Shown in pieces: positions 398 through 21,304 of a DNA stretch of 32,000 nucleotides. Source of the DNA: Thermofilum pendens Hrk 5 (GTDB lineage: Archaea > Thermoproteota > Thermoprotei > Thermofilales > Thermofilaceae); the NCBI RefSeq assembly GCF_000015225.1, contig NC_008698.1, positions 1,680,001 through 1,712,000 of the forward strand. The letters run 5' to 3'. The notes beneath the pieces were generated by a model. The model saw only the letters and a list, made by a program, of their open reading frames with translations. It made no database searches and was not told where the DNA came from. The position numbers and the translations under genes are program-made. Positions within the stretch are counted from its first letter, which is position 1. The number at the start of each line of letters is the position of its first letter.

Positions 398-403
398 CGC
401 GCA

Positions 404-420
404 CCCCTGGAAAACAGGGG
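404..420. promoter_or_regulatory. Perfect hairpin or dyad CCCCTG-GAAAA-CAGGGG between the TATA-like element and the TTG start of the heptad-repeat gene
   Basis: Read directly: 6-bp arms, 5-nt spacer. Confidence 0.4.
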
Positions 421-586
421 CTCAGCCTCATTATATCTGTTGCGGACACCGCCGTGCTGAAAGCCGGAGGAACAGCATTTAGCGGCGGTACGGGTCTGGG
501 TAAACGGGGAAGCGAGAAATAACCAGCTGAGAACAATTTTGGAGGGTTGCCCGACACTGTCGTAGAGCTACGCGCTGGGCGGGCCT

Positions 587-3179: not shown

Positions 3180-3908
3180 GTGAAAAGTAGGGCTTTCTCT
3201 TTCTTCCAGGCCTTCCTAGAGGCTGTGTCCGGCGTAGCCGAGGAGCTCAGCTCCGCCGGAAAGCCGCCCGCGTCCCCCTGGGCGCTCGTACTCGTTGGGC
3301 TCGCCGCCGACGTGGAGGCCTCCTACGCCTCCGGGCCCGCCACGCCGGCCATGGCGATAGCCCTCGGAGCGGTGCTCGCTGCAACCTCCCGGAAGCTAAG
3401 GGGCTGGCTCACGGTAACGCTCGTCTCCGCGTTCTTCGCCGGGCTGGTCGCGCTCCCCGCGTTGCTCCGCGGGGACCCCGGGGCGCCGCTCTTCGTCCTG
3501 AGGGCTGTCGCGGCGTCCTCGGCCTTCACGGGTGTCCTCGCATCCCTCGGCTGGCTCTGGTTGCTGAGGGGGCTCGAGGAGCTACGGCTCCCCCGGGGCC
3601 TCGTGTGGGAGCTCGGGCTCACGCTGAGGGCTATCCCCGTCTTCGCCAGGGACGCGTCGAGGATGCTGGCCGCCAGGGAGGCCAGGCTTCTCGCGTCTTC
3701 CCGGGCTTCCTGGTCCGTTGTCTCGAGCGTCGCCGGCGACCTGTTGCTCGCAGGGGTTAGGAGGGCGCGGGCGTTGCAGATGGCGCTGGAGGCGAGGAGC
3801 TTCGGCGAGCCGCTAGCCCCCCGTAGGCGCCTAGACCCCCGGCCCGCCGACGCCGCGCTTATAGCCTGGGCCCTGCTCATGACGGCGGTGTTCGCGGGTG
3901 GGGCTTAG
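3180..3908 (+). CDS. cbiQ: ECF transporter transmembrane T component CbiQ
   Basis: 242 aa, GTG start, hydrophobic. Ala-Arg-Gly-type coupling region (LRAIPVFARDASRMLAAREARL ... ARALQMALEARSFG). Stop TAG 3906-3908 shares G 3908 with the cbiO GTG. Confidence 0.7.
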   Translation: MKSRAFSFFQAFLEAVSGVAEELSSAGKPPASPWALVLVGLAADVEASYASGPATPAMAIALGAVLAATSRKLRGWLTVTLVSAFFAGLVALPALLRGDPGAPLFVLRAVAASSAFTGVLASLGWLWLLRGLEELRLPRGLVWELGLTLRAIPVFARDASRMLAAREARLLASSRASWSVVSSVAGDLLLAGVRRARALQMALEARSFGEPLAPRRRLDPRPADAALIAWALLMTAVFAGGA

Positions 3909-4627: not shown

Positions 4628-4773
4628 CTTAGGACTGCAGGGCGGCGCGCGCTGCTTCGGCTAGCGCTGGTAGCACTGTTTCCTCGAACTCCACGGGCTT
4701 CCCGGAGCCCATGTCGACGCGCGCGTCAAAGTAAACACCCCCTGAAGGTTTAAGGTTAGGAGTTATATTTTCC

Positions 4774-6036: not shown

Positions 6037-6039
6037 GCT

Positions 6040-7071
6040 TCACGCACCGGAGATCTTCCTGTAAAGATCCAGGTAAGTGGAAGCGGCTTTTTCCCAAGTG
6101 AAGAATGCGGACCTCTCGATGCTCCTAGCGGAGAAGGTCTCGTAAAGCTGTTGGTCCGTCAGCAACACTAGGAGCTTTTCCGCCAGGTCCTCGCTGTCGC
6201 CGGGCCGAAACTTCAACCCGGCGTCGCCTGCCACCTCCGCCGCGCCTCCGGCGTCGGGTACGATGACGGGTAGACCGCTCGCCATAGCCTCCAGCACGGC
6301 GAGCCCGAAAGGCTCTTTGGAGCATGTGTGAATGAATATTGTTGCCGAGCGGTAAAGCTGGGGGAGCTTTTCGAAGGGTATCCTCTCGGCGAAGCGCACC
6401 GTGTCTTCGAGCCCATGCCTCCTTAGGTAGCCTTCAACTTCCCGTTTTAGAGGCCCATCCCCCCTTATGACCGCTTCGAAGCTCGCCTTCCCCTTCACTA
6501 GCCTGATCGCCTCTAGGAAGGTGAACGGCTCCTTGAATCCTACGAGACGCGAGTTCCAGAGCACGACGTGGTGTATGGGCGGTTCCAGCGGCTTATTCCT
6601 TCGGAAGGTGTCCAGGACCCCGTGGTACACGACAGCCGTAGCCTTTACTCCCAGCCTCTCGCGGAGCATCCTAGCCGAGAAGTTACTTATAGTTACCACG
6701 GGGACCCCTGCCTCGTATAGCTGAAGCAGGCTCTCGCGCTCCTTCTCGTAGAAGCGGCGCTGCTCTCTTTCCACGAGCTCTGGCTCAGGCCAGCCGTGCT
6801 CCGTTAGTAGCAGGTTGTCGCGGGGGCCTAAGAGGGCTCCGTGGCTGGCGGTGTTCACGTGTACTACGTCGTAGCGCCGGGCCAGCGCCTTAAGGGCGTA
6901 CTTGTAGAGTAGGTCCCGGTGCCCCGGTACCGGGAGGCGGGGGACTACCATCTGCCTCGCGGAGACGGGGTATCGTGCGAACGCCAGGAGCTCGACCTTG
7001 ATTCTTCTCGATAGCTCGCCGGCAAGCCCCACGGTGTAGTGCTCCACGTGGGGTGTAAGTAGCACCTTCAT
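6040..7071 (-). CDS. Glycosyltransferase, GT4 family
   Basis: Motif IHTCSKEPFGLAVLEAMASGLPVIVPDAGGAAEV. Start placed at ATG 7071 (MKVLLTPH), preceded by GGAGG. The track ORF extends to TTG 7095. Its stop lies 3 nt upstream of the next GT4 start, so the two form an operon. Confidence 0.85.
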   Translation of the reverse strand: MKVLLTPHVEHYTVGLAGELSRRIKVELLAFARYPVSARQMVVPRLPVPGHRDLLYKYALKALARRYDVVHVNTASHGALLGPRDNLLLTEHGWPEPELVEREQRRFYEKERESLLQLYEAGVPVVTISNFSARMLRERLGVKATAVVYHGVLDTFRRNKPLEPPIHHVVLWNSRLVGFKEPFTFLEAIRLVKGKASFEAVIRGDGPLKREVEGYLRRHGLEDTVRFAERIPFEKLPQLYRSATIFIHTCSKEPFGLAVLEAMASGLPVIVPDAGGAAEVAGDAGLKFRPGDSEDLAEKLLVLLTDQQLYETFSARSIERSAFFTWEKAASTYLDLYRKISGA

Positions 7072-7145
7072 GCTTTCGCCTCCGAGCATCTTCAAGCTCT
7101 ACGCCTGGTCGCAAAGCTAAAAAGCTTCTTGCTCTTCGAAGAGCC

Positions 7146-8207
7146 GTGGCTCGGGCTGGCGAGTACCCGTTGATCACGGTCGCGATGGTGGCGCTGAACA
7201 GGGAGTGGATTATCGGGCACGCCTTGAAGAGCCTGCTTTCCCAGACGTACCCCCACGACAGGATTTTCTTCGTCCTCGTGGACGGCGGGAGCGTTGACCG
7301 CACGGTGGAGGTTGTGCGCGAAGCCCTGAGCGGGTCCGACCTAGCAGGCTTCGAGGTCGTCGTGCAGAGGAGCAATATCCCTGAGGCTAGGAACATAGCT
7401 ATCGAGAGGATGAGGGGGGAGGCGATATTCTTCTGGGACAGCGACGTACTCCTAGAGCCGGACGGTTTGAAAATGCTATACGAAGCCGCCTCAGACTATG
7501 GGATCGATATCTTGTCCGCAGATACCCTGTCCATTAAAGTCTCCAGTGTAGAAGAAGGTTGGAGAGTTTTAGAAGAGCTGTGTAAGAAGAGGGGAAAAAT
7601 CGGCGTAGAGCTTGTTCCCGCTGTCGCTATGGGTGCAACGCTTATTCGAAAAATCGTGTTGGATAGGGTTAGGTTTGACCCCGAGCTTACCTTTGGCGAG
7701 GACGCTGATTTCTGCGTAAAGGCACGTTCCCTCGGTTATAGAGTAGCCGTGCATAGAGGCGTGGTGGCTGTCGATGTGAACGTTACCGGTAGAGCTGGTA
7801 GCGACATATACGTTTCTAAACCTCTCACCGAACTTTTAAAGGGTATTCGGAAGAAGGCTAAAGTAAAGGTTCTCGGTCTCAGCTTCGATCCGGGTCTCAA
7901 AGATGTACTCGTTTACATGTGGAGGTACAAGAGGTACCTTTACTACCTCGGCTACCTTCCGATGCTTGTAGCGCTAATAGTCGGACTTGCGAAAAATCTC
8001 CCGATGCTCACTTTACTCTTCCCTGCCTATGTACTTCCCTACCTACTATACCAGGCTAAGAGGAGGGGTATCCTCTTGGGCTTAAAGACCTTTATAGCGA
8101 GCCTCGTTGTCGGTCTTCCATTGTCGCTTTCAATGCTAGCATATGCTACTGCTAGAAGCTTGGAACGCTTCGTAAGCACGCCGCGCAGAAAGAAGCATGT
8201 CCGTTAG
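7146..8207 (+). CDS. Glycosyltransferase, GT2 family, with C-terminal transmembrane region
   Basis: N-terminus PLITVAMVALNREWIIGHALKSLLSQTYPHDRIFFVLVDGGSVDRT (GT-A/GT2 pattern), FWDSDV motif, hydrophobic C-terminal third. GTG start. Confidence 0.8.
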   Translation: MARAGEYPLITVAMVALNREWIIGHALKSLLSQTYPHDRIFFVLVDGGSVDRTVEVVREALSGSDLAGFEVVVQRSNIPEARNIAIERMRGEAIFFWDSDVLLEPDGLKMLYEAASDYGIDILSADTLSIKVSSVEEGWRVLEELCKKRGKIGVELVPAVAMGATLIRKIVLDRVRFDPELTFGEDADFCVKARSLGYRVAVHRGVVAVDVNVTGRAGSDIYVSKPLTELLKGIRKKAKVKVLGLSFDPGLKDVLVYMWRYKRYLYYLGYLPMLVALIVGLAKNLPMLTLLFPAYVLPYLLYQAKRRGILLGLKTFIASLVVGLPLSLSMLAYATARSLERFVSTPRRKKHVR

Positions 8208-8461
8208 TATGGGTTAGCGCTTCTTGTTGCAAACGAGAGCCCGACTCCGGGTGCAGGAGAGTACCCGGTATCCCTGCAGGCGAAGTCTTCGCCGAGAACT
8301 CTTAAAAATAGCTCCGCGCCGCCGTGGTATTCGACTCGCGCGCGTAGACCCAGTTCTCGAAGAGCCTTCTGGTTGCAAGCAAGGCACGCAACTTCCCGTG
8401 AGCCTGGAACAACGCACTCTCCATGCGTATCCCGCACAACGTTTCTTCTATGAAGCTGCAC

Positions 8462-8485
8462 CCTTTAATCCCTTTTCATTAAAGG
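8462..8485. promoter_or_regulatory. Hairpin/dyad CCTTTAAT-(8 nt)-ATTAAAGG in the unassigned spacer upstream of the fourth glycosyltransferase
   Basis: Read directly: perfect 8-bp arms. Confidence 0.35.
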
Positions 8486-8576
8486 CGGAGAATCCTGCGC
8501 TTCTAGGAGTTCTGTACCGCAGTGTAACTTATTAAGACGTTCTAAGCAGTGGTGCTTGTACCTAGAGGGGGAGTGC

Positions 8577-9617
8577 ATGGAGACGTTTAGGTTGCTCGTT
8601 GTTTCGCCGAGGGTTAGCGGGCTGGGCGGCGTGGCGCAACACGTCGGGAAGCTCGTCGAGTTGCTTCGGCGCGATGGGCACGAGGTCGAGGTTGTCTCCG
8701 CCGAGAATACTCCTATTCTGCCTGTGAAGGGCTTGATGAACCCGAGCTTCGCGGCTACGTCTGCTTTGAAGGTGGCACTTGGCAGGCTGAAGGGGCGTAG
8801 GTACGACGTTGTACACGCGCATAACGTGCCGTCGGCGCCCGCGATGCGCGCGGCGAGGGGAGGGAGGGTTTTAACGCTCCACGGGGTTTTCTCGGAGCAG
8901 GTCGGCTACCTTCACGGCGGCTTGCTGGGCAGGCTGAGCGGGGTCGCCGAGAGGGTTGCGCTGGGATGGGCGGACCGCGTGACGTCTGTTTCCAGGGCGA
9001 CCGCCGAGCACTACTCTAGGATCGGCGTAAACGTCGTCCATGTTCCGAACGCCGTCGACCCGTCGGACCTGCCGGGTGAAGGGGAGAGGATGTACGAAAG
9101 GCAGGTTGTCTACAGCGGTAGGCTGTCCAGGGAGAAGGGCGTCGACCTCCTGGTGAAGGCTTTCAGGGCTCTCGACGTTGATGCGCACCTCGTCGTGGTC
9201 GGCGGTGGCCCCCTGGAGGAGGAGCTGAGGAGCCTCGCGGGGGGCGACCCGAGGATCCACTTCCTCGGCCCCATGCCGAGGGAGCGTGCGCTCAGAGTGG
9301 TGAAGGGGTCCGATGTCTTCGTGTTGCCGTCCCGCTACGAGGGGCTTAGCACCGCGCTCTTGGAGGCGATGGCTATGGGAGTCCCCGTCGTCGCCACGAA
9401 GGTTGGAGGGAACACCGAGCTGGTAGAGGATGGGAAGACGGGGCTACTCGTCGAGCCATCCCCGGAGGAGGTGGCGCGCGCCGTCAGGCTGCTCCTGGAG
9501 GACAGCGACCTCGCGGCCCGCCTGGCCTCGGCCGCGAAGAGAGTCGTGGCGGAGAAGTACAGCTGGGACAAGGTGTACGCGCAGTACCTCGATGTTTACA
9601 GGGAGGTTGCCCGGTAG
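8577..9617 (+). CDS. Glycosyltransferase, GT4 family (high-GC)
   Basis: Motif LPSRYEGLSTALLEAMAMGVPVVATKVGGNTELVEDGKTGLLVEP. Start placed at ATG 8577 (METFRLLVVSPR), preceded by GAGGGGGAG. The track ORF starts at 8556. Confidence 0.85.
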   Translation: METFRLLVVSPRVSGLGGVAQHVGKLVELLRRDGHEVEVVSAENTPILPVKGLMNPSFAATSALKVALGRLKGRRYDVVHAHNVPSAPAMRAARGGRVLTLHGVFSEQVGYLHGGLLGRLSGVAERVALGWADRVTSVSRATAEHYSRIGVNVVHVPNAVDPSDLPGEGERMYERQVVYSGRLSREKGVDLLVKAFRALDVDAHLVVVGGGPLEEELRSLAGGDPRIHFLGPMPRERALRVVKGSDVFVLPSRYEGLSTALLEAMAMGVPVVATKVGGNTELVEDGKTGLLVEPSPEEVARAVRLLLEDSDLAARLASAAKRVVAEKYSWDKVYAQYLDVYREVAR

Positions 9618-9768: not shown

Positions 9769-10104
9769 GTGAAGAGGGTTAGGTGCTACCCTAACGAGAA
9801 GGTCGAGGGGGTCACGGTCTTCGTTCCTAGGGGGCATAGCCACGTGAGGGTGATCCTGGAGCTCGAAGACCAGGTCGTGGTGCTCCACGAGGCTACGGTC
9901 GCCGCTATCGCGAGGGCTTACATGGACGTCGTGGCTCACCCTCTGCGCCGGGCGGTTCAGCTTAGGCGCGCCGCGCTCGCCGAGAGGAAGAGAGGTTACG
10001 CGGAGCACCAGCTCTTAGAGGTCGATAGAGGCGAGGACGAGATAGTCGAGGAGGCGGAGAAGGTCCTGGAGGCCTGCGCGGAGCGGGTCAGCGGGGAGGC
10101 TTGA
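9769..10104 (+). CDS. Hypothetical protein (111 aa)
   Basis: ORF with a TATA-like box at leaderless spacing. No recognisable motif. 3' end overlaps the convergent DUF58 gene by 17 nt. Confidence 0.45.
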   Translation: MKRVRCYPNEKVEGVTVFVPRGHSHVRVILELEDQVVVLHEATVAAIARAYMDVVAHPLRRAVQLRRAALAERKRGYAEHQLLEVDRGEDEIVEEAEKVLEACAERVSGEA

Positions 10105-10957
10105 GGCTCCTGGCCTTCAAGTAGAGGAGCGAGAGCCTCGCCCTGTCCTCCCGGGCTTTCTGCCAGCAGGTGTCCATGAAGGCTGACCCGCCGGAGGTCA
10201 GCCTGGACCTCGCGAGTGCCACGTGCCTCGCTATGCCGGCGTACACCTCCCGTAGCCTTCCGTGGACGCGGCTACCGGTCTCCGGGTCTACGAGGGTTGC
10301 GAGGGCGTCTGGGGGCGGGTGGACTTCCCACCAGTCGTAGACGAGGAGGTACGCGGCTCCCCTCGACGCGGCTAGGGTCTTCGAGGATCGCTCGAAGTCC
10401 TCCAAGCTGTGGGCGTAGTCCGTGACTAGGAGTACTGGGGCCCTTGGCAGGGCGAGGAGCCTCGCGGCTATCTCTCCCAGGGTAGCCTTGCCGGGGGCTG
10501 TGGAGGCGCATATCCTCGATGCAATGATGTGGGGCAGGTCTCTGGGCTTCACCTTCCCGTAGACCTCGAAGCCCCTCCCCGTGGATAGGACTAGCGTGAA
10601 CGTGTCCTCCAAGGTGTCTGCAACTGCGGCTATGACTGCCAGCGCATACACGAGGGTTTTCGGCTTGGACTGGTACAGCATGGAGGCGGAGAGGTCGACT
10701 GCCAGCGCGACCCTGGTCTTTCTCTCGGCCCTGTAGACCTTCACTATGGGCCTGTAGCCCCCGTCGGGGCCCGGGGACCTCGCCGTCGCCCTCCAGTCTA
10801 TGTGCCTAGCGTCGTCGAATGGCTGGTACTCGCGGAAGTCTACGTACTCGAGCCCTAGGCCCATCGACGAGACGGGGCTCGTCCCGGTGGCGTAGTTCGC
10901 CACGTCTCTCTCGGCGATCCTCAGCGCGCTCCTCGCCGCCCTGCAGTGATCATCCAT
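10088..10957 (-). CDS. DUF58 family protein (vWA-like partner of MoxR ATPases)
   Basis: Signature GLGLEYVDFREYQPFDDARHIDWRATARS, followed by the MIDAS-like VALAVDLSASM. Confidence 0.85.
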   Translation of the reverse strand: MDDHCRAARSALRIAERDVANYATGTSPVSSMGLGLEYVDFREYQPFDDARHIDWRATARSPGPDGGYRPIVKVYRAERKTRVALAVDLSASMLYQSKPKTLVYALAVIAAVADTLEDTFTLVLSTGRGFEVYGKVKPRDLPHIIASRICASTAPGKATLGEIAARLLALPRAPVLLVTDYAHSLEDFERSSKTLAASRGAAYLLVYDWWEVHPPPDALATLVDPETGSRVHGRLREVYAGIARHVALARSRLTSGGSAFMDTCWQKAREDRARLSLLYLKARSLKPPR

Positions 10958-10994
10958 ATTAAGCCCTTCGCCCCGGTAACCGCGGGAGCGGCAT

Positions 10995-11819
10995 ATGAAG
11001 TTTTACGACCCGGAGGAGCTCCTAGGCGCGCTCGTAGTGGACTCCGCTGGGCTTGTTTACGGCGTGGTGGGCGGGTACAGGCTGGCGCCCGAGGGGGTTG
11101 TCCTGGAGGCTTACGTCTCCCTGGGCGTGGACGCCGATGCCCTGAGGAGGGCTCTGCGCGAGAGGGGGGTTGAGCCGGGCGGGGAGGGGGTCGAGGCGCT
11201 CGTGCTGGCCGCCCGGAGGCTGGGGCTCGAGGTCCCCAGGGTCGGCGGCCGCGAGGTCAGGGTGCTGAAGGGGCTCGTGAGGCCCGGGGAGATCTCGCTT
11301 ATAGACGTGAGGGTGCTCGAGAACCCCTCCACCGGCGCCGAGGAGAGGATCGGGGTGGTGCTGCTGGGTAGCCAGCGGGAGGCAGAGTTCAGGGGGCTCA
11401 GGTTCTCCGGGGGCCCGGTGGTGGACGAGGGGGTTGTCGGCAAGCTGTGCGTGAGCGCGAGCAACGGGGTGCTCGGCTACGTGTACGGGTTCGTCGTGGG
11501 GGCGGGGGAGTCTGGGCTCAGGGCCTGCAGGAGGAGGGGCAGGGTCGAGCTCAACTGGGCGTCCTTTCTCTCCGAGGCTAGGCGGCTCGCCGGCGAGGAC
11601 GCCTACTACAGGCTGGTGGGGTTCCGCGACCCCTTGAAGAGCCCGAGGCTTTCCGGGGCGGAGGTCGAGGAGGCCAGGAGGCTCCTCTCGGAGATGGGCC
11701 TCCTCGAGAGGCTGTCGCCCCTCCTCGAGTCCCACTCTAAGAGAACGGGCCCGGCGGAGTGCGCGGACGTGCCGCTGAGAGACGTCCTCGCCGCCAGGGA
11801 AGTGGTGCTCGTAAAGTAG
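10995..11819 (+). CDS. Hypothetical protein with two PRC-barrel-like segments
   Basis: 274 aa. EELLGALVVDSAGLVYGVVGGYRL and EGVVGKLCVSASNGVLGYVYGFVV resemble the PRC-barrel consensus (hh-G-x-V-x-D-x-x-G-x-x-hG-x-V). Lies directly upstream of MoxR on the same strand. Confidence 0.5.
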   Translation: MKFYDPEELLGALVVDSAGLVYGVVGGYRLAPEGVVLEAYVSLGVDADALRRALRERGVEPGGEGVEALVLAARRLGLEVPRVGGREVRVLKGLVRPGEISLIDVRVLENPSTGAEERIGVVLLGSQREAEFRGLRFSGGPVVDEGVVGKLCVSASNGVLGYVYGFVVGAGESGLRACRRRGRVELNWASFLSEARRLAGEDAYYRLVGFRDPLKSPRLSGAEVEEARRLLSEMGLLERLSPLLESHSKRTGPAECADVPLRDVLAAREVVLVK

Positions 11820-11859
11820 ATAAGCGGGGAGGCGTTTGCGCAGTGGGCGGTGCTCCGCG

Positions 11860-12921
11860 ATGCCGGTAGGCGTCGACGACGTCAAGGAGGTTTCCCGGGA
11901 GCTCCTCGGGGAGCTTGGAAGGGTCGTCGTCGGCTACGAGGAGGAGAAGGCGCTCGTGCTCGCCTCGCTCATAGCCGGTGGGCACGTCCTCCTGGAGGGG
12001 GTTCCGGGGATAGCTAAGACTACTCTCGCGAAGAGCCTTGCGAGGCTACTGGGGCTGTCCGAGGGCTACGCGCTGGAGCTGGACGGCGTCGCCTACAGGG
12101 GTTTCTCCAGGGTGCAGTTCACGCCGGACCTCATGCCGTCCGACATCACGGGGAACCTCGTGTTCAACCCCTCCACGAGGAGCTTCGAGCCGCGCTTCGG
12201 CCCGGTGTTCACGTACTTCCTGCTAGCAGACGAGATAAACAGGGCTGTTCCCCGGACTCAGAGCGCGCTTCTACAGGCTATGCAGGAGAGGGAGGTGACC
12301 ATAGGGGATAGGAGCTACAGGCTGGAGGTGCGCGAGAGGGGGAAGTTCTTCTTCGTGATCGCGACGCAGAACCCCGTCGAGCAGGAGGGGACGTATCCGC
12401 TCCCAGAGGCTCAGCTCGACAGGTTCCTCATGAGGGTGTTCGTGGGCTACCCGTCCTCCCTGGAGGAGGAGGTGAGCATATACAGGCTCCACGGGTACAG
12501 GGTCGGGGAGCCCTACGAGGACCTCGAGCGGCTCGTGGAGCCCGGGTGGGTCGTCGAGGCCCAGGACTGCGTGGCGAGGAGCGTGGAGGTCCCGGACGAG
12601 GTATTCGAGTACGTGGCCAGGGTCGTGAGGCTTACGAGGCCGAGCGTCTACCCGGAGATCGCCGAGTACTTCGAGCTCGGGGCTAGCCCGAGGAGCGGTA
12701 TAGCGCTCGTTAAGGCTTCGAAGGCTCTCGCGGCGATGAGGGGTTCCACCGTCGTGGAGAGGGTCGACGTCGACAGGGCGCTCTTCCCGGTGCTGAACCA
12801 CAGGCTCGTGCTTAACGTCGAGAAGCTAGTCTCGGAGGAGTTCAGGGGCGAGAAGGCGGTGGCCCACATCAAGGTTATCAGGGAGGGGTTGAGGAAAGTG
12901 GTCGAGGTGGCTAGGGGGTGA
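11860..12921 (+). CDS. MoxR-type AAA+ ATPase
   Basis: GHVLLEGVPGIAKTTLAKSLARLLG (Walker A), FLLADEINRAVPRTQSALLQAMQEREVT (Walker B / sensor region), FFVIATQNPVEQEGTYPLPEAQLDRF. ATG 11860 preferred; TTG 11836 is possible. Confidence 0.9.
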   Translation: MPVGVDDVKEVSRELLGELGRVVVGYEEEKALVLASLIAGGHVLLEGVPGIAKTTLAKSLARLLGLSEGYALELDGVAYRGFSRVQFTPDLMPSDITGNLVFNPSTRSFEPRFGPVFTYFLLADEINRAVPRTQSALLQAMQEREVTIGDRSYRLEVRERGKFFFVIATQNPVEQEGTYPLPEAQLDRFLMRVFVGYPSSLEEEVSIYRLHGYRVGEPYEDLERLVEPGWVVEAQDCVARSVEVPDEVFEYVARVVRLTRPSVYPEIAEYFELGASPRSGIALVKASKALAAMRGSTVVERVDVDRALFPVLNHRLVLNVEKLVSEEFRGEKAVAHIKVIREGLRKVVEVARG

Positions 12922-13826
12922 TAGAGTTCAAGGGGGTCGTCAAGAAGTACGGCGGCTTCGCCGCCCTCAGAGGGCTGGACATGCACATACCCAGGGGCGT
13001 CACAGCCGGCCTCGTGGGCCCCAACGGCTCCGGGAAGACTACGACGATAAAGCTCGCGGTGGGGCTCTTGAAGAAGAGCGGGGGAGAGGTGAGGGTGCTG
13101 GGGCTCGACCCCTGGTACGACGGCGTCGAGCTACGGAGGAGGGTCGGGGTGCTCCACGAGAAGCCCCTCTACCCCCAGGACGTGACCGTGAGGAGGCTCC
13201 TGGAGCACTTGGCGGGGCTTAGGGGGCTCCCCGCCCAGGAGGCGGTCCGCGTCGCCAGGCTAGCGGGCATTGAGGGGTACATGGAGAGGTCTGTCTCGTC
13301 GCTGTCCAGGGGCTACCTGCAGAGGCTGGGGATCGCGATCGCGCTCATGGGGGAGCCCGAGCTACTCCTGCTGGACGAGCCGACCGCCAACCTGGACCCC
13401 TCGGCGAGGTTCGAGATACTCGGGATGCTGGAGAACCTGAAGAAGGACCTCGGGGTAACGATGGTTATATCGTCCCACGTGCTACCGGAGCTGGAGAAGG
13501 TCTGCGACTACGCGGTCGTGCTGAGCGGGGGCGTGGCCGTCGCCCAGGGGAGCCTGCTGGAGCTCGCCAGGAGGTTCATGGCGACCCTCGAGCTACGCAT
13601 CGAGACGAGGTCCCCCAGGCTCGCGGCCTCCAGGCTCATACTCTCCGAGGCGTTCCTCTCCGTGGAGGTTTCAGACGGGCTCGTGGTGGCGAGGGTGCCC
13701 GGCGAGAAGCTCCGGGAGGCGGAGGCTGTAGTCGAGGATCTCAGGAGGAGTGGGCTCGCGGAGAGCTGGAGCGTTACATCGCGGAGCTTGGGTGAGGTGT
13801 ATGAGGCGGTCAGTAGGGCTGGCTAG
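12918..13826 (+). CDS. ABC transporter ATP-binding protein (ABC-2/DrrA-like, with C-terminal extension)
   Basis: Walker A GPNGSGKTT, signature LSRGYLQRLGIAIAL, Walker B LLLLDEPTANLD. GTG 12918-12920 overlaps the MoxR stop TGA 12919-12921. Confidence 0.9.
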   Translation: MIEFKGVVKKYGGFAALRGLDMHIPRGVTAGLVGPNGSGKTTTIKLAVGLLKKSGGEVRVLGLDPWYDGVELRRRVGVLHEKPLYPQDVTVRRLLEHLAGLRGLPAQEAVRVARLAGIEGYMERSVSSLSRGYLQRLGIAIALMGEPELLLLDEPTANLDPSARFEILGMLENLKKDLGVTMVISSHVLPELEKVCDYAVVLSGGVAVAQGSLLELARRFMATLELRIETRSPRLAASRLILSEAFLSVEVSDGLVVARVPGEKLREAEAVVEDLRRSGLAESWSVTSRSLGEVYEAVSRAG

Positions 13827-14553
13827 CTCCCTGAAGAAGACGGTCAGGCACGAGCTCTTCGTTTCAGGAAAGGTTGCAGCCGCAACGTCGCTACTCGCCG
13901 TTGGCTTCAGCTTCCTCCAGTTCTTCCTCGTACTAGCCTACGCGTCCAGCAGGGGCCTGGCGGGAGGCCCGCCGTTTTCCTACTTCCCCCTCATGTTGAT
14001 GAGCTACGCGTACGGCTTCCTGGTTTTGATGGGGCTTAGCTCGCTCGCAGGTGAGCTGAAAGGCTCCGCCGCGCTGTACCTCTCGCAACCGCTTAGCCGC
14101 TCCGAGTACGTGGCCTCCTGGGCTCTCGCTGTCGTCGTGTCGCCCCTAGCCTCCCTGGTAGCCTCCGCGCTGTTCTCCGCCGCCGTGGTGGATCCGGCGC
14201 TTCTCTGGGAGCACGACCCGTCCCTCTACGCGTTCTGGGTGCTGGAGAACATGATCTCGGGGCTCCTCCTGCTCCTCGTCGCGCTTCTCGGCAGGAGCTC
14301 GGCGCTACTCGTAGTGACTTGGCTCGTCCAGAGAGTCGCGGCTCCATTTGTTACGCTGTTTCTCGCATCCTTATCGCGGATCCAGGGCAGAGCGCTGAAC
14401 CCCCTTCTAGAGTTTCTCGCGCAGAGCGTCTACCCGTTCACCCTCTACTACTCGTTAAACCCGCAACCGCACGCGGTAGCCGGCTCCGCCGTGCTCGTAG
14501 CCACGCTAGCGGTAGCCGTATACCTAGTGACTAGCAGGCGTCTCGAGGTGTAG
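13801..14553 (+). CDS. ABC-2 type transporter permease
   Basis: About 6 TM segments. GELKGSAALYLSQPLSRSEYVASW resembles the ABC-2/NosY-type E-x-x-G-T...P-x-S-R motif. ATG 13801 is preceded by GGTGAGGTG. The track ORF starts at 13750. Confidence 0.65.
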   Translation: MRRSVGLASSLKKTVRHELFVSGKVAAATSLLAVGFSFLQFFLVLAYASSRGLAGGPPFSYFPLMLMSYAYGFLVLMGLSSLAGELKGSAALYLSQPLSRSEYVASWALAVVVSPLASLVASALFSAAVVDPALLWEHDPSLYAFWVLENMISGLLLLLVALLGRSSALLVVTWLVQRVAAPFVTLFLASLSRIQGRALNPLLEFLAQSVYPFTLYYSLNPQPHAVAGSAVLVATLAVAVYLVTSRRLEV

Positions 14554-14556
14554 CAC

Positions 14557-15462
14557 ATGCTGAGGATGCTGGGCTACTCGTTGATCGCCGTCTCGATTGC
14601 TTCCTTAATCTTCGTAGCGTACGCTACTAGGATGGGAGAGATACCCTTCTACCTGGGCTCCGTGTTCTCCGGCGGCCCCTCGGAGATTGTAGTCTACGGG
14701 GACACAGCCCTCATAGCCTTGGAGATGGACGTCGCCCCTCCGAATCCCGTGGAGGGCTTCACCTACCGCGTGGAGACATCCCTAGCGCTCTTCGACAAGG
14801 CGTACCCAGGCTCGGTTCTCGTCGGGCAAAACTACGTACCAGTGATACTCCACGCCGACTACTCGAAGCCTAGATGCGCCTTCCTTGACCGAGCAACCCA
14901 CGCTAGATACAGACTTCTAGTCTCATCGCCCCCCAGCCCTGCGACCATAAGCAACGTTCTGAAACTGCTGGAGAGGTCCGGCGCCGTGGAGCTCCAGGAG
15001 AAGAACGCGACCTTCCCCACCCGCGTACGCGTGATAGTGGGAGGGACAGGCTTCACCCCTAAGTACTACGCGGGCGCCGTGCCCCTTAAGCAGGGCGGCT
15101 ACCTAGTCTGCGTCGTCACCGTGAAGCTTAACTCTACCTACGTAGAGCTTCAAAACTCGTCGACCCCCATTAGGCTCAGCTTAGCGGAGGCAGGGTCGAA
15201 GCTCGGGCTACCGCCCGACTACGTCGAGAAGTGGCTCCACTCCATCGTGGGCCACGAGGGTAGCGAGGTCGTCGCTGTTTACAGGCCGACAACCCTGCAG
15301 GTACTCAGGGCGGCGGTGCTGGCCGCTATCGGCGCCCTGCTCGTAGTCACGGAGTCCAGGCTAGTGGGAGTGCCCCCGCCGTCCCCCGTGGAGGCGGCGA
15401 AAGCGCTGGCTAGAAGGCTACGCCGGATTCTCGGCTACGCGCGTAGAGGAGGATCAGGGTAA
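14557..15462 (+). CDS. Hypothetical protein with N- and C-terminal TM anchors and a presumably extracytoplasmic middle domain
   Basis: 301 aa. Hydrophobic ends (YSLIAVSIASLIFVAYA; VLRAAVLAAIGALLVV). Sequons NAT, NST, NSS. 3-nt gap after the permease gene. Confidence 0.5.
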   Translation: MLRMLGYSLIAVSIASLIFVAYATRMGEIPFYLGSVFSGGPSEIVVYGDTALIALEMDVAPPNPVEGFTYRVETSLALFDKAYPGSVLVGQNYVPVILHADYSKPRCAFLDRATHARYRLLVSSPPSPATISNVLKLLERSGAVELQEKNATFPTRVRVIVGGTGFTPKYYAGAVPLKQGGYLVCVVTVKLNSTYVELQNSSTPIRLSLAEAGSKLGLPPDYVEKWLHSIVGHEGSEVVAVYRPTTLQVLRAAVLAAIGALLVVTESRLVGVPPPSPVEAAKALARRLRRILGYARRGGSG

Positions 15463-16402
15463 CGATCAAGGCAGAGACTGCGAAGGCCCAGCTCAGCCCT
15501 ACCTTCTCCTCTACCACTCCGCCGGCGACTCCGACCGCGCTTGCCCGGACGAGTATCGAGGAGGCTTTCTCCGCGAGCGTCTTGAAAGCCTTCAACAGTT
15601 CCTCCGCGCTACCCGCCGTGTACTCCTCGCCTCCCGTCGACCCCGCTATTAACTTGAGCTCCCTCTCCCCCTCGTCTCCGCCCGGCCCTATGTACACGGT
15701 GTACACCGGGATGCCCAGGCTTCTGAACTCGGACAGAAGGGTTCTATACGTGGCCGCATCTGCCGGGAGACCGTCCGAGACGAAGACCACGAGCGTCGAG
15801 GCGTTGAAGAGCTTGTAGGGCTTCAGCCAGCTTAGAGCCGCCTGGAGCGGGTAGGTGTACATAGTGCCGCCGCCCGGCTTCAGGGACTCTATGGCATCGA
15901 GAACCCTCCTCCTGTCCCCCGTCGGCGGCAACGAGAGTACGATTCTGTCGGAGAACGCTAGGAGGCCTACGTCCACGCCGCCCGGCATTCTCTCCACGAG
16001 CAGGGTCGCCGCCCTCCTGGCAACCTCTATCTTCACCCCACCGGGTATGCTGTCCTCCATGCTACCGCTCACGTCTACGACGAGGACCGCGGCCGGCCTG
16101 GCGACATTGAGGCTTACGTTTAGCTCGGCGGACCCGCTTCGCTCAACCCTCTTCTCCACGACGATGTAGGGGCCCGCGAGAGCCACCCCTACGAGAACGG
16201 CTAGGAGGACTTTGAGGGCCAGCGTGCCAAGCCTCCGCGGCTCAGCGCCGCCGGTACCGGCGTACGCGGCTAGGGGGTTCTTGAGGCTGGATTTCTTCGC
16301 ATAGAACCGCCTGTAGCCCTTCACGTGGAGGTAGTACAGGAGGACTGCGAGCAGGGGGCCCGCGAGGAGGAGCTCCGGCTTCTCGAAGTACACCTGGACC
16401 AC
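15410..16402 (-). CDS. von Willebrand factor A domain membrane protein (BatA/BatB-like)
   Basis: MIDAS motif VLVVDVSGSM, later GGGTMYTY and FVSDGLPAD. N-terminal and C-terminal TM segments. GTG start abuts the upstream stop. Confidence 0.8.
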   Translation of the reverse strand: MVQVYFEKPELLLAGPLLAVLLYYLHVKGYRRFYAKKSSLKNPLAAYAGTGGAEPRRLGTLALKVLLAVLVGVALAGPYIVVEKRVERSGSAELNVSLNVARPAAVLVVDVSGSMEDSIPGGVKIEVARRAATLLVERMPGGVDVGLLAFSDRIVLSLPPTGDRRRVLDAIESLKPGGGTMYTYPLQAALSWLKPYKLFNASTLVVFVSDGLPADAATYRTLLSEFRSLGIPVYTVYIGPGGDEGERELKLIAGSTGGEEYTAGSAEELLKAFKTLAEKASSILVRASAVGVAGGVVEEKVGLSWAFAVSALIVTLILLYARSRESGVAF

Positions 16403-17320
16403 CTACAGGCCGTCTCTGAAGAGTAGCGCCGCGAGGAGGGCTGCGAGAAGTAGTAGCGGTTCTCGGCCTACTGGCGTCTCCACGGTTACGTCCGCGTACG
16501 CCAGCCCCGCGAGCCTTAGCGCCTCGTAGCGTGCAGTCGCGGAGACGTTGGACGCTATGCTCGGAGCGAGGTCCTGCGAGAAAGCGTCGAGCTCGAGGTA
16601 CTTCCCATTGGCCTTCGAGGCTACGTCACGCATAAGCGAGCCTCTGGGGTCGCCCCCCACTCTTACGAGGACGAGGCTGTAGTTGGAGGCGCGGATGCTC
16701 TGGGCGACCTGGAGGGGGTCTGACCCGTAGTTCCACCCTCCGTCGCTCACTACGACAACGGCTCCCGGGAGCCCCGAGGCGGCGAGGACGCTGTACGCCG
16801 ATACCAGCGCGTCGCCGAGCGCCGTGTACCTGTACCTGCACGTGTAGCCGTCCAGCGCTCTCAGCGCGTTGTCCCTCGGGAGGGGGCCCGTGGCGTTAGA
16901 GCTTGAAGAGAAGAAGACAAGGACTACGAGGTCCGAGGGCTGTAGCCCCTCTATGTACTTTTCGGCGAACCTCTTCGCGAGGGTGCACCTGTCGGGGTAG
17001 ACATCCGCGGAGAGCATGCTCTTCGACTCGTCTAGGACGACCACGTGCAACGTCGGTACGCCGCTCAGCTTGTAGGCTTCCTCCAAGGGTAGCTCGACCC
17101 TCTTAACCTCGACTACGCGGGGCTCGCTAGCCGCTAAGACGAGGAGCAAGGCTATCGCCGAGGCGAGAGCGAGGCGCGGCGTCAACCCCGGTAGCTCCCC
17201 GGGGAGCGCCCTCCTGATACCCTCCTGGACTCTCTTCGCCCGCCTGTACACCGCGTAGATGGCGAGGAGCGACGCCGGAGCCAGGAGCAATAGGTAAGCC
17301 TTCCCGAAGACGAGGTACAT
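16403..17320 (-). CDS. von Willebrand factor A domain membrane protein (BatA/BatB-like)
   Basis: MIDAS-like VVVLDESKSM, YTALGDAL, VVVSDGGWNYG. N-terminal TM segments and a C-terminal hydrophobic tail. Confidence 0.7.
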   Translation of the reverse strand: MYLVFGKAYLLLLAPASLLAIYAVYRRAKRVQEGIRRALPGELPGLTPRLALASAIALLLVLAASEPRVVEVKRVELPLEEAYKLSGVPTLHVVVLDESKSMLSADVYPDRCTLAKRFAEKYIEGLQPSDLVVLVFFSSSSNATGPLPRDNALRALDGYTCRYRYTALGDALVSAYSVLAASGLPGAVVVVSDGGWNYGSDPLQVAQSIRASNYSLVLVRVGGDPRGSLMRDVASKANGKYLELDAFSQDLAPSIASNVSATARYEALRLAGLAYADVTVETPVGREPLLLLAALLAALLFRDGL

Positions 17321-17330
17321 GGAGGACCAC

Positions 17331-18197
17331 CTAGTCGTCGCTACTCGGGGCGCCGTAGCCGGCCCCGCTCCCCCCGCCCTGCTGGGCGTTCGCTACCGCG
17401 TAGAGGAGGCTTTTAAGCCTCGAGACCGCGTACGAGAAAGGCCCGGCGTCCGGAGGGTTGAGCGCCCCGAGGGATCTCGCGAGCTGCTCGCTGACGGCAA
17501 TGCTCCTCCCGGCTTTCCTCGCCTTGCACAGCGCGTCCAGCTCCTCCGGGTGCTTGGAGGTTATGTCGACGGCGAGTAGTAGCTGTTTCAGGTACCTCTG
17601 AGCGGCGTCCACGGCTTCGGACGCGTTGCGGTGGGCGTCGACGTGGCTCTGGGAAAGCAGCGTCGAGGGGTCGGCGAGGGAGAGGTTGCCCGCGGCTAGT
17701 CCTACCAGGGAGTACGCCCTAGAGAGGTTGCCCGCGATGCTCAGCCCGAGCCTGTGCGCCTCAGCCGCGTTACACTCCTCCAGCGCCGCGAGGTACCTCT
17801 GGATGCTCTCCTTGGACCCCGAGAGGACGTCCAGCGCCGCGTAGATACTGGAGGAGGCGTTCGCCATCCGGCCGTAGCTGTCGGAAGCGCTTAACAGCCT
17901 TAACACGAGGTCGGAGGGGTCCATCTCGGAGAGGGCGTTCCTGTAGGACGCTATCTCGCCTGCAATCCTAGAAGCGTTCGCGGACATCGACCGGAAGTCC
18001 GCGTTCCACCGGGCGGGGTTCCGGAGCATCGTCGAGGAAGAGTTGAGGTGGTAGACCGCCTCTACGAAGAGCCTCGGCACCTCCCTTAGGTCGGGTGTCC
18101 CGGCCGCCGTGCCTCCCGGCTTGTAGAAGAACAGGGCTAGGAGCGCTACGAGCAACAACTGGAGGACTAGTAACTCTGCCAGGCTACGCCTAGACAT
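17331..18197 (-). CDS. Signal-anchored, sequon-rich alpha-helical protein of unknown function
   Basis: 288 aa. N-terminus LAELLVLQLLLVALLALFF. Six N-x-S/T sequons (NSS, NAS, NAS, NLS, NLS, NAS). TATA-like ATAAAT (minus) at 18221-18226, about 25 nt upstream of ATG 18197. Confidence 0.55.
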   Translation of the reverse strand: MSRRSLAELLVLQLLLVALLALFFYKPGGTAAGTPDLREVPRLFVEAVYHLNSSSTMLRNPARWNADFRSMSANASRIAGEIASYRNALSEMDPSDLVLRLLSASDSYGRMANASSSIYAALDVLSGSKESIQRYLAALEECNAAEAHRLGLSIAGNLSRAYSLVGLAAGNLSLADPSTLLSQSHVDAHRNASEAVDAAQRYLKQLLLAVDITSKHPEELDALCKARKAGRSIAVSEQLARSLGALNPPDAGPFSYAVSRLKSLLYAVANAQQGGGSGAGYGAPSSDD

Positions 18198-18338: not shown

Positions 18339-19256
18339 GTGGAGTTGCTCAGCAAGGAGGAGAAGCTGAGGATACTTAGAACCCTCGAGGAGGACGCGGA
18401 GTTCAGGCACGCTGTAGCCGGGCTTATCGGGATGAGGGAAATTTTGGAGAAGCTCGACAGGCTGTGGGAGGAGGTCAGGGACCTTAGGGAGGAGCAAGCG
18501 AGAACGTGGAAGGAGATCGAGAAAGTTTGGGGAGAAATCGAGAAGCTACGCGAGGAACAGGCGAAAACGTGGAAGGAAATTGAAAGATTGCGTGAAGAAC
18601 AGGCAAAGACGTGGAAAGAGATTGAAAAGCTGAGGGAGGAGCAGGCGAGGACGTGGAAGGAAATCAAGAAAGTGTGGGAAGAGATCGAGAAGCTACGCGA
18701 AGAGCAGACAAAGATCTGGGAGGAGATTGAGGAGCTACGCAAGGAACAGACAAAAATGTGGGAGGAGATCAAGGGGCTTAGAGAGGGGCAGACGAAGATA
18801 TGGCAGGAGATCGCCGAGCTGAAGGAGGGGCAGGGCAAGATTTGGGTTACGCTTAACAGGCTTTCGAAGACAGTGGAGAGGCTTACTCTGACTGTCGAGG
18901 AGGAGGCAGGGGAGGTTATTAGCTACAGGATGAGGGAAGAGATGGGCGTCAGGATCGCACTGTCCTCGATCGTTGTAGACGATAAGGAGATCAACGTGTA
19001 CGGTGTGTCGGACGATCTCTGCGTGGTGGGCGAGGCGACAGTTAGGCTTGGAGACGAGCTCGTAAAGGAGCTGGAGAGGAAGGTAGAGTACATCGCCAAG
19101 GCGAGGCCCGACCTGCTGAGGTCGAGGATGATCAAAGTGATATACGCGGACTACGCTACCCCCTCCGCCCTGCGGCTCGCCGAGGAGATGGGTATATGGG
19201 TCTTGAAGTGGAGCGGCGACCTCACACCCAGGGTCGTCCACTCGTTGAAGCAATAA
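18339..19256 (+). CDS. Coiled-coil protein: Trp-register heptad array plus a C-terminal restriction-endonuclease-like (DUF3782-neighbourhood type) domain
   Basis: 305 aa. Eight units of LREEQ(A/T)K(T/I)WKEIEK. C-terminus EINVYGVSDDLCVVGEATVRLG ... AEEMGIWVLKW resembles, from memory, the E-I-D...G-E-x-K...elGI pattern of archaeal PD-(D/E)xK-like proteins. Confidence 0.75.
   Translation: MELLSKEEKLRILRTLEEDAEFRHAVAGLIGMREILEKLDRLWEEVRDLREEQARTWKEIEKVWGEIEKLREEQAKTWKEIERLREEQAKTWKEIEKLREEQARTWKEIKKVWEEIEKLREEQTKIWEEIEELRKEQTKMWEEIKGLREGQTKIWQEIAELKEGQGKIWVTLNRLSKTVERLTLTVEEEAGEVISYRMREEMGVRIALSSIVVDDKEINVYGVSDDLCVVGEATVRLGDELVKELERKVEYIAKARPDLLRSRMIKVIYADYATPSALRLAEEMGIWVLKWSGDLTPRVVHSLKQ
18453..18860 (+). 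repeat. In-frame 42-nt (14-aa) tandem coding repeat; two units carry an extra 21-nt heptad
   Basis: Trp at residues 43, 57, 64, 78, 92, 106, 113, 127, 141, 155, 169, all congruent modulo 7. The units differ mostly at synonymous positions. Confidence 0.85.
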
Positions 19257-20332: not shown

Positions 20333-21304
20333 TTAATGCTCCCGCCCGGCTAGCCTGCTTATTCTCCTAATGTAGTAAAGCTTCCCCTCGTACTCGATCT
20401 CTACCAGGAGGTTCTCGCGCACGAGCTCCTCCACTACGCCCCACTCCGCCCCCGCCCTCTTAAGGAACTCCTCGACGGCGTCTCTCCGCATCGGGTGCAC
20501 CGCCGTTATGGCGAGCAGGTCCTCCCTTACGTTCCCGGTTGGCGCGAAGTCGCTTCCCTCGTACCCCGTGAGCAACTCCACCCTGCCTGGGCCGAGCCTC
20601 TCCGAGAGAAGCTGGTAGGCGGCGTTCACGACCTCCTCCCCTGCGGGCTTCACCCACTTCTCGGCGGGGGGCCTCACCGGGACCGCTACGTAGGCCTTCG
20701 CGAGCCTCCTCAGGCCTCCCAGAAAGTCCGCGAGCCGCTGCAGCTCCTCGCCGTACTCCACGCCTCCTACGAGCATTGTCTCCGAGACAAGGGTTCCCTT
20801 GAACTCCTCGGCGAACACGGATACACCTTCCAGGACCTTCTCAAGGCTTAGCTCCCTGCTCGGCCTGTTCACCCTCCTCCACAGGCCCTCCTCGACCGCG
20901 TCGACCTTCACGGATACGAAGTCTGCGCCTGCTAGGTCCTCCCTTACGTCCTCGCGCCACAGGAGCGACGCGTTCGTGAGGACGGCTACCGGTTTCCCCA
21001 GGCCCTTTAGGAGCGAGATCTCCCTCCCGAGGTTCGCGTCCAGAGTAGGCTCCCCGTCCGGCACGAATGTTACGAAGTCCACCCTCTCCCCCCTGGACGC
21101 CGCCTCTCCGAGCTTGGCTTTGACTGCCTCGTATACCTTCTCGGGCTCGTAGAAGGCCCTCCTCTCCACCGTGAGGACCGTAGTCCTCCCGACTTGGCAG
21201 TACACGCAGGAGTAGGAGCACACCTTGGCCGGTATGTTGTTGACGCCGAGGCTTCTCCCCAGCCTCCTGCTAGGCACGGGCCCGAACGCTAGCGCGGAGT
21301 CCAC
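20333..21304 (-). CDS. Radical SAM domain protein with a non-rSAM C-terminal domain
   Basis: CSYSCVYCQ (CxxxCxxC), preceded by FGPVPSRRLGRSLGVNNIP. GTG start 14 nt downstream of the Bax1 stop. Confidence 0.85.
   Translation of the reverse strand: MDSALAFGPVPSRRLGRSLGVNNIPAKVCSYSCVYCQVGRTTVLTVERRAFYEPEKVYEAVKAKLGEAASRGERVDFVTFVPDGEPTLDANLGREISLLKGLGKPVAVLTNASLLWREDVREDLAGADFVSVKVDAVEEGLWRRVNRPSRELSLEKVLEGVSVFAEEFKGTLVSETMLVGGVEYGEELQRLADFLGGLRRLAKAYVAVPVRPPAEKWVKPAGEEVVNAAYQLLSERLGPGRVELLTGYEGSDFAPTGNVREDLLAITAVHPMRRDAVEEFLKRAGAEWGVVEELVRENLLVEIEYEGKLYYIRRISRLAGREH

Follow-up and report, generated by a model that had tools for sequence, protein, structure and literature searches.

MoxR-DUF58-vWA operons of the Bat type are among the most widespread AAA+ systems in prokaryotes, yet they are without a known client or mechanism. 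Such Bat/MoxR-DUF58-BatA-BatB operons, named for "Bacteroides aerotolerance" and found in Bacteroides, Leptospira, Borrelia (BB0170-BB0176) and Mycobacterium (Rv1479-Rv1481), are the closest bacterial kin of the gene cluster described here. For archaea, a "novel secretion or membrane remodelling complex" associated with arCOG01314 was predicted in 2015 (Makarova, Galperin, Koonin; PMC5898192, section 3.2). We analyzed a stretch of 32,000 nucleotides (nt) from Thermofilum pendens Hrk 5, a member of the order Thermofilales in the Thermoproteota (contig NC_008698.1, positions 1,680,001 to 1,712,000), referred to below as the window. It contains nine consecutive genes, g1 to g9, for a DUF58 protein (g1), a PRC-barrel-like protein (g2), a MoxR ATPase (g3), an ATP-binding cassette (ABC) ATPase (g4), a likely ABC-2-like permease (g5), a bitopic protein (g6), two vWA proteins (g7 and g8) and a membrane-anchored helical protein (g9). 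With the Bat operons the cluster has in common a MoxR ATPase of the AAA_3 family, with AAA_lid_2 and intact Walker motifs, and a DUF58 gene beside it. Judged by genome comparison, the nine genes are a real, conserved system, and they probably form one undescribed membrane-spanning machine.

Nine open reading frames (ORFs) tile positions 10088-18197 of the window, with no gap larger than 40 nt (Table 1). A preliminary description of this DNA had counted ten consecutive genes. The gene content that it gave, DUF58, MoxR, ABC ATPase and two vWA genes, was borne out when the window proteins were profiled against Pfam and NCBIfam, and the 37-nt divergent spacer between g1 and g2 is read in the sequence. 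No Pfam family was matched by the window proteins g2, g5, g6 and g9. One of the nine proteins has 100% identity to a hypothetical protein of T. pendens. The genes are densely packed. A 26-nt overlap joins g4 and g5, only 3 nt separate g5 from g6, and the convergent g6 and g7 overlap by 53 nt. In the vWA block, g9 and g8 are 10 nt apart, and g8 and g7 0-9 nt.

The linkage of these genes recurs across archaea. A genome scan with MoxR was dominated by bacterial MoxR and gave two close archaeal loci. The others were reached via MoxR orthologues, which are 56-71% identical, form a large archaeal group, and are at most 49% identical to bacterial MoxR. All nine families were present at seven of the MoxR-seeded loci, namely L003 (a Staphylothermus metagenome-assembled genome, MAG), L083 (a 1.37-Mb genome contig), L085 (Ignisphaera), L086 and L087 (two contigs), L088 (Infirmifilum/Thermofilum sp. 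NZ13) and L090 (a Desulfurococcales MAG). L086 and L087 have flanking synteny in common with L084, whose MoxR is labelled Korarchaeota by NCBI. Locus L089, from Candidatus Geocrenenecus (Nitrososphaerota, Wolframiiraptoraceae), carries the first five genes, and then the contig ends. As a second seed, metagenomes were scanned with a g2 alignment, and ORFs were scored by family hidden Markov models from eight complete loci. DUF58 and/or MoxR adjoin g2 in 55 of 59 metagenome loci, an ABC ATPase orthologue is present in 15 of the 18 that span MoxR and a vWA gene, and seven metagenome loci hold all nine families on one contig.

With the window included, the nine-family set was found on one contig at 15 loci (1 + 7 + 7). 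Fourteen of them are complete, and L086 is without an intact permease call. These loci belong to Thermofilales, Desulfurococcales/Ignisphaera, and probably Korarchaeota, and the DUF58 gene is adjacent in every complete locus. In a purely descriptive count over both seeds, ABC genes were present in 23 of the 26 loci spanning MoxR and a vWA gene, while of 78 bacterial MoxR loci, used as a control, not one had an ABC ATPase gene next to MoxR.

At least six gene orders exist among the loci. Besides the order of the window, all nine genes can lie on one strand (L083), g2 can be shifted into the DUF58 operon (L085, L089, L096-L106), the ABC trio (g4 to g6) can lie on the far side (L086, L087, L132, L133), MoxR can stand alone (L088), and the ABC genes can share their orientation with g2 and DUF58 and not with MoxR (L125). 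Two blocks, ABC ATPase-permease-g6 and g9-vWA-vWA, are unbroken in all orders. When a gene set is kept through repeated rearrangement across three phyla, this is the classical mark of genes that function as a unit. The preliminary description would have been refuted by a chance juxtaposition, with ABC and MoxR/DUF58/vWA genes never side by side in related genomes; on the evidence of these neighbourhoods, in which the orthologues do co-localize, chance juxtaposition is refuted. Its view of MoxR as embedded in, and translationally coupled to, an exporter operon holds for part of the lineages only. The start codon of the T. pendens ABC ATPase gene, GTG, does overlap the MoxR stop codon, as GTGA, and such an overlap is also found in L085 and L089. 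However, it is not universal, and MoxR lies outside the ABC operon in the Korarchaeota-like, Infirmifilum and L125 arrangements. Since the ABC trio is sited elsewhere in some lineages, the conserved feature is membership in the cluster, and not translational coupling.

Table 1. Coordinates of the nine genes, of conserved elements within them, and of further features in the window and at related loci (aa, amino acids; TM, transmembrane segment).
Locus	Feature	Position (nt)	Strand	Description	Evidence
Window	g1	10088-10957	-	DUF58 protein, vWA-like, predicted cytoplasmic	Pfam DUF58 (PF01882), E 8e-19
Window	g1/g2 spacer	10958-10994		Divergent, 37 nt	Read from sequence
Window	g2	10995-11819	+	274 aa, predicted cytoplasmic, PRC-barrel-like, two beta-barrel units with helical insertions	AlphaFold2 and Foldseek
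Window	g3	11860-12921	+	MoxR-subfamily AAA+ ATPase, 353 aa, ATG start	AAA_3, E 9e-54; AAA_lid_2, 6e-15
Window	g4	12918-13826	+	ABC ATPase, DrrA/NosF/ABCA class (type V, ABC-2-partnered)	ABC_tran, E 9e-24
Window	g5	13801-14553	+	250 aa, 6-TM permease, ABC-2-like	Six hydrophobic segments
Window	g6	14557-15462	+	301-aa bitopic protein, N-terminal TM, C-terminal TM, sequon-bearing ectodomain	TM prediction
Window	g7	15410-16402	-	BatA-like vWA protein, N-terminal TM hairpin, vWA, C-terminal TM	VWA_2, E 5e-19
Window	g7 C-terminal Phe	15410-15412 region	-	Predicted cytoplasmic	Invariant
Window	g8	16403-17320	-	BatB-like vWA protein, topology as g7	VWA, E 4.5e-11
Window	g8 penultimate Gly	16403-16410	-		Invariant
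Window	g9	17331-18197	-	288 aa, N-terminal signal anchor, helical sequon-rich ectodomain, then Gly/Gln-rich linker	TM prediction and alignment
Window	g9 C-terminal tail	17334-17372	-	Codons of GSGAGYGAPSSDD-COOH	Orthologue conservation
Window	Glycosyltransferase genes	4774-9617		Four genes (three GT4-type, one GT2)	
Window	111-aa ORF	9769-10104	+	No family match	
Window	305-aa coiled-coil protein	18339-19256	+	Tandem repeats of 42 nt and 147 nt (units like EKLREEQAKTWKEIE)	Syntaxin and MCPsignal, weak
Window	DUF790 protein and radical SAM protein	21319-23370 and 20333-21304	-	Adjoining genes	DUF790, E 9e-117
L086	DtxR-type repressor gene	729-1148		Korarchaeota-like lineage only	
L087	DtxR-type repressor gene	1425-1847		Korarchaeota-like lineage only	
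L132	DtxR-type repressor gene	3271-3687		Korarchaeota-like lineage only	
L145	Variant cluster	9977-17409		g2-like, MoxR, DUF58, 453-aa transglutaminase-like, 378-aa N-anchored helical protein, two vWA	
L084	CDC48-type AAA ATPase gene	4633-8229		Intein-interrupted	
L086	CDC48-type AAA ATPase gene	14268-17855		Intein-interrupted	
L088	Second ABC pair	186-1785		ABC_tran + ABC2_membrane	

Among the proteins predicted to be cytoplasmic, the MoxR protein g3 is the AAA ATPase of 353 aa annotated by NCBI in T. pendens (100% identity), its closest solved structure is 2r44 (2.7e-60), and its Walker A and Walker B residues are invariant in eight lineages. Downstream of MoxR, the Korarchaeota-like contigs L084 and L086 carry an intein-interrupted gene for a CDC48-type AAA ATPase. 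The DUF58 gene g1 is monocistronic in the T. pendens genome, and its product has no transmembrane segment and 0 sequons. The signature residues of DUF58 are invariant across the eight lineages; DxSxS stands at the position of the metal-ion-dependent adhesion site (MIDAS) in three of them, with one further, off-register match in L003.

For g2, we accept the preliminary assignment as PRC-barrel-like, and the modelled protein would consist of two barrels with helical insertions. The AlphaFold2 model, from an alignment of 41 sequences, has a pLDDT of 94.1 and a pTM of 0.84. In a Foldseek search of the PDB, the six best matches were all PRC barrels, as were many of the top 50, the leading ones being CdpB1/CdpB2 of Archaeoglobus, RimM, MTH1895 and the reaction-centre H protein. 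All E-values were 0.01 or worse, none reaching 0.001, and query TM-scores were at most 0.2, so that the support comes from the consistency of the hits and not from the strength of their scores. PF05239 was matched by three of ten g2 orthologues (best 5.6e-5) and by two of 41 representatives, though not by the g2 of the window. Profile searches of PDB sequences gave no significant match; MTH1895 came first, with E 0.21, in an alignment that set both the N-terminal and the C-terminal strands of g2 against a single barrel. Word-index homologue searches with g2 and g6 returned the query alone. An exhaustive HMMER search found 53 representatives of the g2 family in 1.84 billion proteins, and this rare protein is the marker of the system.

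In the ABC trio, the ATPase g4 is well defined. Its best NCBIfam families are DrrA (1e-47) and GldA (3e-41), and the nearest PDB entries are ABCA7/3/4/1, NosF (E 1e-40) and Rv1218c. Walker A, the catalytic Glu of Walker B and the H-loop are invariant, and the ABC signature is an unusual, likewise invariant LSRGYLQR (residues 129-136) in place of LSGGQ. Between lineages the g4 proteins are 42-59% identical, which places them at the level of orthologues. The adjacent g5, with its start at 13801 taken from the gene call in L001, is likely an ABC-2-like permease. The six hydrophobic segments agree with the permease proposed in the preliminary description, which is thereby moderately supported, but the family matches are weak: PmtD of NCBIfam was hit at 7.6e-4, below the family cut-off, and ABC2_membrane_3 was matched by one of seven orthologues, at 2.8e-5. 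In L088, a second and ordinary pair of ABC_tran and ABC2_membrane genes adjoins the ABC trio of the cluster.

The gene for g6 invariably comes right after the permease gene. Only three features of the protein are conserved, the N-terminal TM, the C-terminal TM and a basic cytoplasmic tail (RRLRR in the window), and the ectodomain is poorly conserved. No Pfam family was found for eight g6 orthologues, and the single-sequence AlphaFold2 model was unusable (pLDDT 36). Along with g5, g6 is among the fastest-evolving members of the cluster. At short divergence, g6 is nevertheless 92-97% identical, about as conserved as its neighbours (92% vs 89-96%), which indicates a weakly constrained protein and not a diversifying one. 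The idea of g6 as a hypervariable arms-race protein was rejected on these grounds.

In the vWA block, g7, which also matches PRK13685 (3e-14), has a complete and invariant MIDAS (D110-x-S-x-S, T180, D210). In g8, which matches VWA_BatB_Lepto weakly, DxSxS and the MIDAS Asp are invariant. The Pfam model BatA_N found no match at E <=0.01 among the window proteins. The invariant last residue of g7 and the invariant penultimate Gly of g8 may be docking motifs. The g9 gene invariably precedes both vWA genes, and a Pfam search that included eight orthologues placed g9 in no family. The protein ends in the motif G-x-G-A-G-[YRWT]-x3-P-x2-[DYN]-D, present in all eight seed orthologues and in further orthologues from metagenomes. 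Across all loci examined, the strict pattern was exclusive to g9 ORFs. Even the g9-like protein of L142, a variant without ABC genes, keeps the tail and ends in GSGATKGEERPRD. The tail is a candidate ligand for the metal sites of the vWA proteins.

Transmembrane prediction divides the nine proteins among cytoplasm, membrane and outside. No TM segments were found in g1 to g4 and six in g5, and the double anchor of g6 and the N-terminal anchor of g9, both in the preliminary description, were predicted again. In g7 and g8, the loop of the N-terminal hairpin is strongly basic, which together with the C-terminal TM would place the vWA domains outside. This predicted orientation agrees with the BatA-like protein BB0173, for which a vWA domain facing the periplasm has been shown experimentally (PMC5700661). 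N-x-S/T glycosylation sequons are 2.4-3.2 times more frequent in g6 to g9 than expected from composition (p 1e-4 to 4e-15, eight lineages), with 2.5 times the expectation in g7 and 3.2 times in g9 (p 4e-15). In g1 to g5 sequons are not enriched, and the pooled odds ratio is 7.3. The sequon richness noted in the preliminary description was thus statistically confirmed, and the non-enzymatic partners are indeed predicted to be membrane or extracytoplasmic proteins. We conclude that g6 to g9 are predicted to face outward, a topology backed by the sequons, and that the surface complex is probably glycosylated. In T. pendens, the four glycosyltransferase genes directly upstream of the sequon-rich cluster lie in a stretch of lower GC content (0.50-0.57 vs ~0.63). 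A functional tie of the cluster to these genes was rejected, as the adjacency is not kept in other lineages.

Demonstrated gene families, their conserved linkage, the intact catalytic and MIDAS motifs and the predicted topology are the ground on which a mechanism can be proposed. In the cytoplasm, a MoxR AAA+ ring would be the engine, with two adaptors, the vWA-like DUF58 and the tandem PRC-barrel protein g2. The role of g2 is drawn from CdpB1/B2, solved archaeal PRC barrels that act as protein-recruiting adaptors. The engine would act on the short cytoplasmic parts of membrane proteins, the basic hairpin loops of g7 and g8 and the basic tail of g6; candidate targets are this tail, the invariant C-terminal Phe of g7 and the conserved end of g8. 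An ABC-2-type transporter, made of a g4 dimer and a g5 dimer, would work with g6 as its fixed bitopic partner. Its task may be to bring a substrate that is small or linked to a lipid to the outer face, or else to transmit ATP-driven movement outward, as NosFY does. Outside, two membrane-tethered, N-glycosylated vWA domains would hold the helical glycoprotein g9 through their MIDAS metal sites, and the contact on g9 would probably be its invariant C-terminal Asp-Asp carboxylate tail. There is a precedent for a C-terminal carboxylate as a MIDAS ligand, since that of C3b ligates the MIDAS of factor B. The net function would be the ATP-dependent assembly, remodelling or maintenance of a glycoprotein complex at the cell surface, in the pseudo-periplasmic space, with envelope integrity, stress tolerance or adhesion as possible outputs for the cell.

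The balance of the evidence tilts toward a functional link between all nine genes, in one system that spans the membrane of hyperthermophilic TACK archaea and works in this manner. Our confidence in one functionally linked system is much higher than in the whole statement, and that in the specific contacts much lower. Only tentatively, and as less likely than not, do we suggest a trans-envelope machine in which MoxR, DUF58 and the PRC-barrel protein, together with an ABC-2 mechanotransducer or exporter, build or run an extracellular two-vWA complex that clamps the Asp-Asp tail of g9. The assembly or export machine suggested in the preliminary description is likewise something we infer, and that interpretation is partly supported.

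Several points weigh against the proposed system. The loci were counted without de-replication, and in statistical terms the orthologues are not independent of one another. The MIDAS motif of DUF58 is degenerate in about half of the lineages. The ABC-2 assignment of g5 is weak, and an hhalign comparison of its profile with one ABC2_membrane protein was negative. As g6 is without a recognizable fold and is the fastest-evolving member, any specific role for it is weakened. The probable contact between the g9 tail and the MIDAS is pure inference. Three divergent variants (L142, L145, L147) keep g2, MoxR, DUF58 and the two vWA genes but have no ABC trio; in L145, on a metagenome contig of 1.9 Mb, a transglutaminase-like protein is encoded in place of the ABC genes. 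At L110 and L114, moreover, nothing but the DUF58-g2-MoxR triad is seen before housekeeping genes begin, so that the core can do without the ABC module. As far as gene content tells, the core is the DUF58-g2-MoxR triad plus the vWA block, with the ABC trio as a stable addition that is specific to a clade. One could go further and read the locus as two independent neighbours, the MoxR/DUF58/vWA module being Bat-like and the ABC-2 genes encoding an ordinary pump for the efflux of a drug, an ion or a lipid. Besides the ABC-less variants, this would fit the relocation of the trio as a block of its own and the generic exporter ATPases (DrrA, GldA) as top families of g4. Nevertheless, an independent pump would hardly stay within the cluster in 23 of the 26 loci spanning MoxR and vWA, in three phyla and despite at least six rearrangements, when no bacterial MoxR locus of the 78 has an adjacent ABC ATPase. 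It would also have to account for the translational overlap with MoxR in several lineages and for the ABC trio as part of the g2-DUF58 operon in L125. We consider such independence quite unlikely.

Another unlikely reading is metal handling, in which MoxR and the vWA/MIDAS proteins serve the insertion or chelation of a metal in the manner of Mg-chelatase, CoxD/E or NorQ/D, and a NosFY-like ABC-2 transporter supplies or exports the metal for an extracytoplasmic target. The intact MIDAS sites and the chelatase-like ancestry of MoxR and vWA proteins would suit it, as would the place of NosF among the solved structures closest to g4. MoxR also matches BchD/ChlD and cobaltochelatase, but weakly and far under the family cut-offs. 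In L086, L087 and L132, the ABC ATPase gene directly adjoins one for a DtxR-type, metal-dependent repressor, a possible hint at metal-dependent regulation, yet this repressor gene is confined to one lineage. Profile searches and neighbourhoods revealed no metalloenzyme target, metallochaperone or NosD/NosL-like gene at any of the loci. A general link of the cluster to metal regulation via DtxR was rejected, the gene being present in that lineage only. A surface-exposed conflict or anti-virus system, akin to the MoxR-vWA ternary conflict systems and with the g6 ectodomain as the variable element, is very improbable. The rapid evolution of g6 and g5 could speak for it, as could a faint bpMoxR match in Pfam (27.9 bits, 51 residues). 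This match spans 51 of 205 profile positions, however, and the Pfam search found neither a beta-propeller nor an effector domain. PADLOC gave only generic ABC-ATPase similarity and no defence system, the viral contigs searched held no relatives, the cluster is placed among housekeeping genes, and g6, as seen above, is not diversifying.

If the trans-envelope machine proposed above is real, g9 would be a client of a Bat-type MoxR system, and the first that can be identified. This archaeal variant offers a fixed list of nine parts, a rare marker in g2 and an energy-coupled module of ABC-2 ATPase, permease and g6. As a candidate client, g9 has a short invariant tail, which makes its recognition testable. 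Binding and co-purification experiments on the client question of Bat-type systems thus become concrete, and they can be done with thermostable proteins. With a conserved, probably glycosylated surface complex, the cluster also extends what little is known of the cell envelope in hyperthermophilic Thermoproteota, Korarchaeota and Wolframiiraptoraceae.

The direct surroundings in T. pendens include a 111-aa ORF that runs toward the DUF58 gene on the opposite strand and overlaps its 3' end by 17 nt. It is not conserved beside the cluster elsewhere and may be the tenth gene of the preliminary description. On the other side of the cluster, a coiled-coil protein made of tandem repeats is encoded (Table 1). 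The genes for a DUF790 protein and a radical SAM protein are unrelated to the cluster.

The preliminary description knew of no described system of this kind. In the literature searched, the nine-gene cluster as such is not described, but the Bat operons and the arCOG01314 system are conceptually close. With the arCOG01314 system (PMC5898192) it shares an archaeal setting, a COG0714 MoxR and extracytoplasmic vWA proteins in one neighbourhood, several membrane-anchored surface proteins, and the reading as an envelope machine. That system is defined by a DUF4350/GldG-like protein with a flavodoxin fold, Ig-like S-layer proteins and Ig-vWA fusions, and its link to ABC-2 is conceptual, via the GldG-like protein. 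At the level of sequence, eight g6 orthologues gave no match to DUF4350 or ABC_transp_aux at E <=1, and Ig-like S-layer and Ig-vWA domains went undetected in the window proteins and in the g6 and g9 orthologues. Unlike the Ig-vWA fusions, the vWA proteins here have TM hairpins. DUF58, a PRC-barrel protein and the ATPase and permease of an ABC transporter are all absent from the published description.

The ABC trio recalls NosDFY and GldAFG, with an ATPase of the same class, a small 6-TM permease and, always adjacent, a third gene whose product is a partner anchored in the membrane with a domain outside, here g6. However, g6 is dissimilar to NosD and GldG in sequence and far smaller than GldG, the Nos and gliding genes are absent here, and a linkage to MoxR and vWA is not a feature of those systems. 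The archaeal PRC-barrel adaptors, CdpB1/CdpB2 and the PRC barrel of CdvA, are small beta-barrel protein-protein adaptors and include the best structural matches of g2. In contrast to them, g2 combines two barrels and helical insertions in 274 aa, belongs to a tiny family, and is found in the context of MoxR and DUF58 instead of cell-division or translation genes. A published survey of archaeal PRC barrels mentions neither MoxR nor vWA or von Willebrand. Likewise, a full-text literature search, with most subscription journals outside its reach, gave no paper combining MoxR with a PRC barrel, or MoxR with ABC-2 and vWA.

The Bat operons, too, make a close comparison. Besides the MoxR-DUF58 pair, both have two membrane-anchored vWA proteins, in which an N-terminal TM hairpin is followed by a vWA domain with a MIDAS and by a C-terminal TM; the vWA domain faces outward, by prediction in the case of the cluster. 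The MoxR orthologues of the cluster are a separate archaeal group, in contrast to bacterial MoxR. The TPR (BatC/BatE) and BatD families were found neither in the nine proteins nor in eight orthologues each of g6 and g9. Unlike the Bat operons, the cluster adds the tandem PRC-barrel protein, the trio of ABC-2 ATPase, permease and bitopic protein, and g9 with its conserved acidic tail. The core is a Bat-type module without TPR and BatD, and the added parts are not described for Bat operons. Taken as a whole, and leaning somewhat to this side, we regard the system as a Bat-type MoxR/DUF58/vWA system that would have acquired two extra modules.

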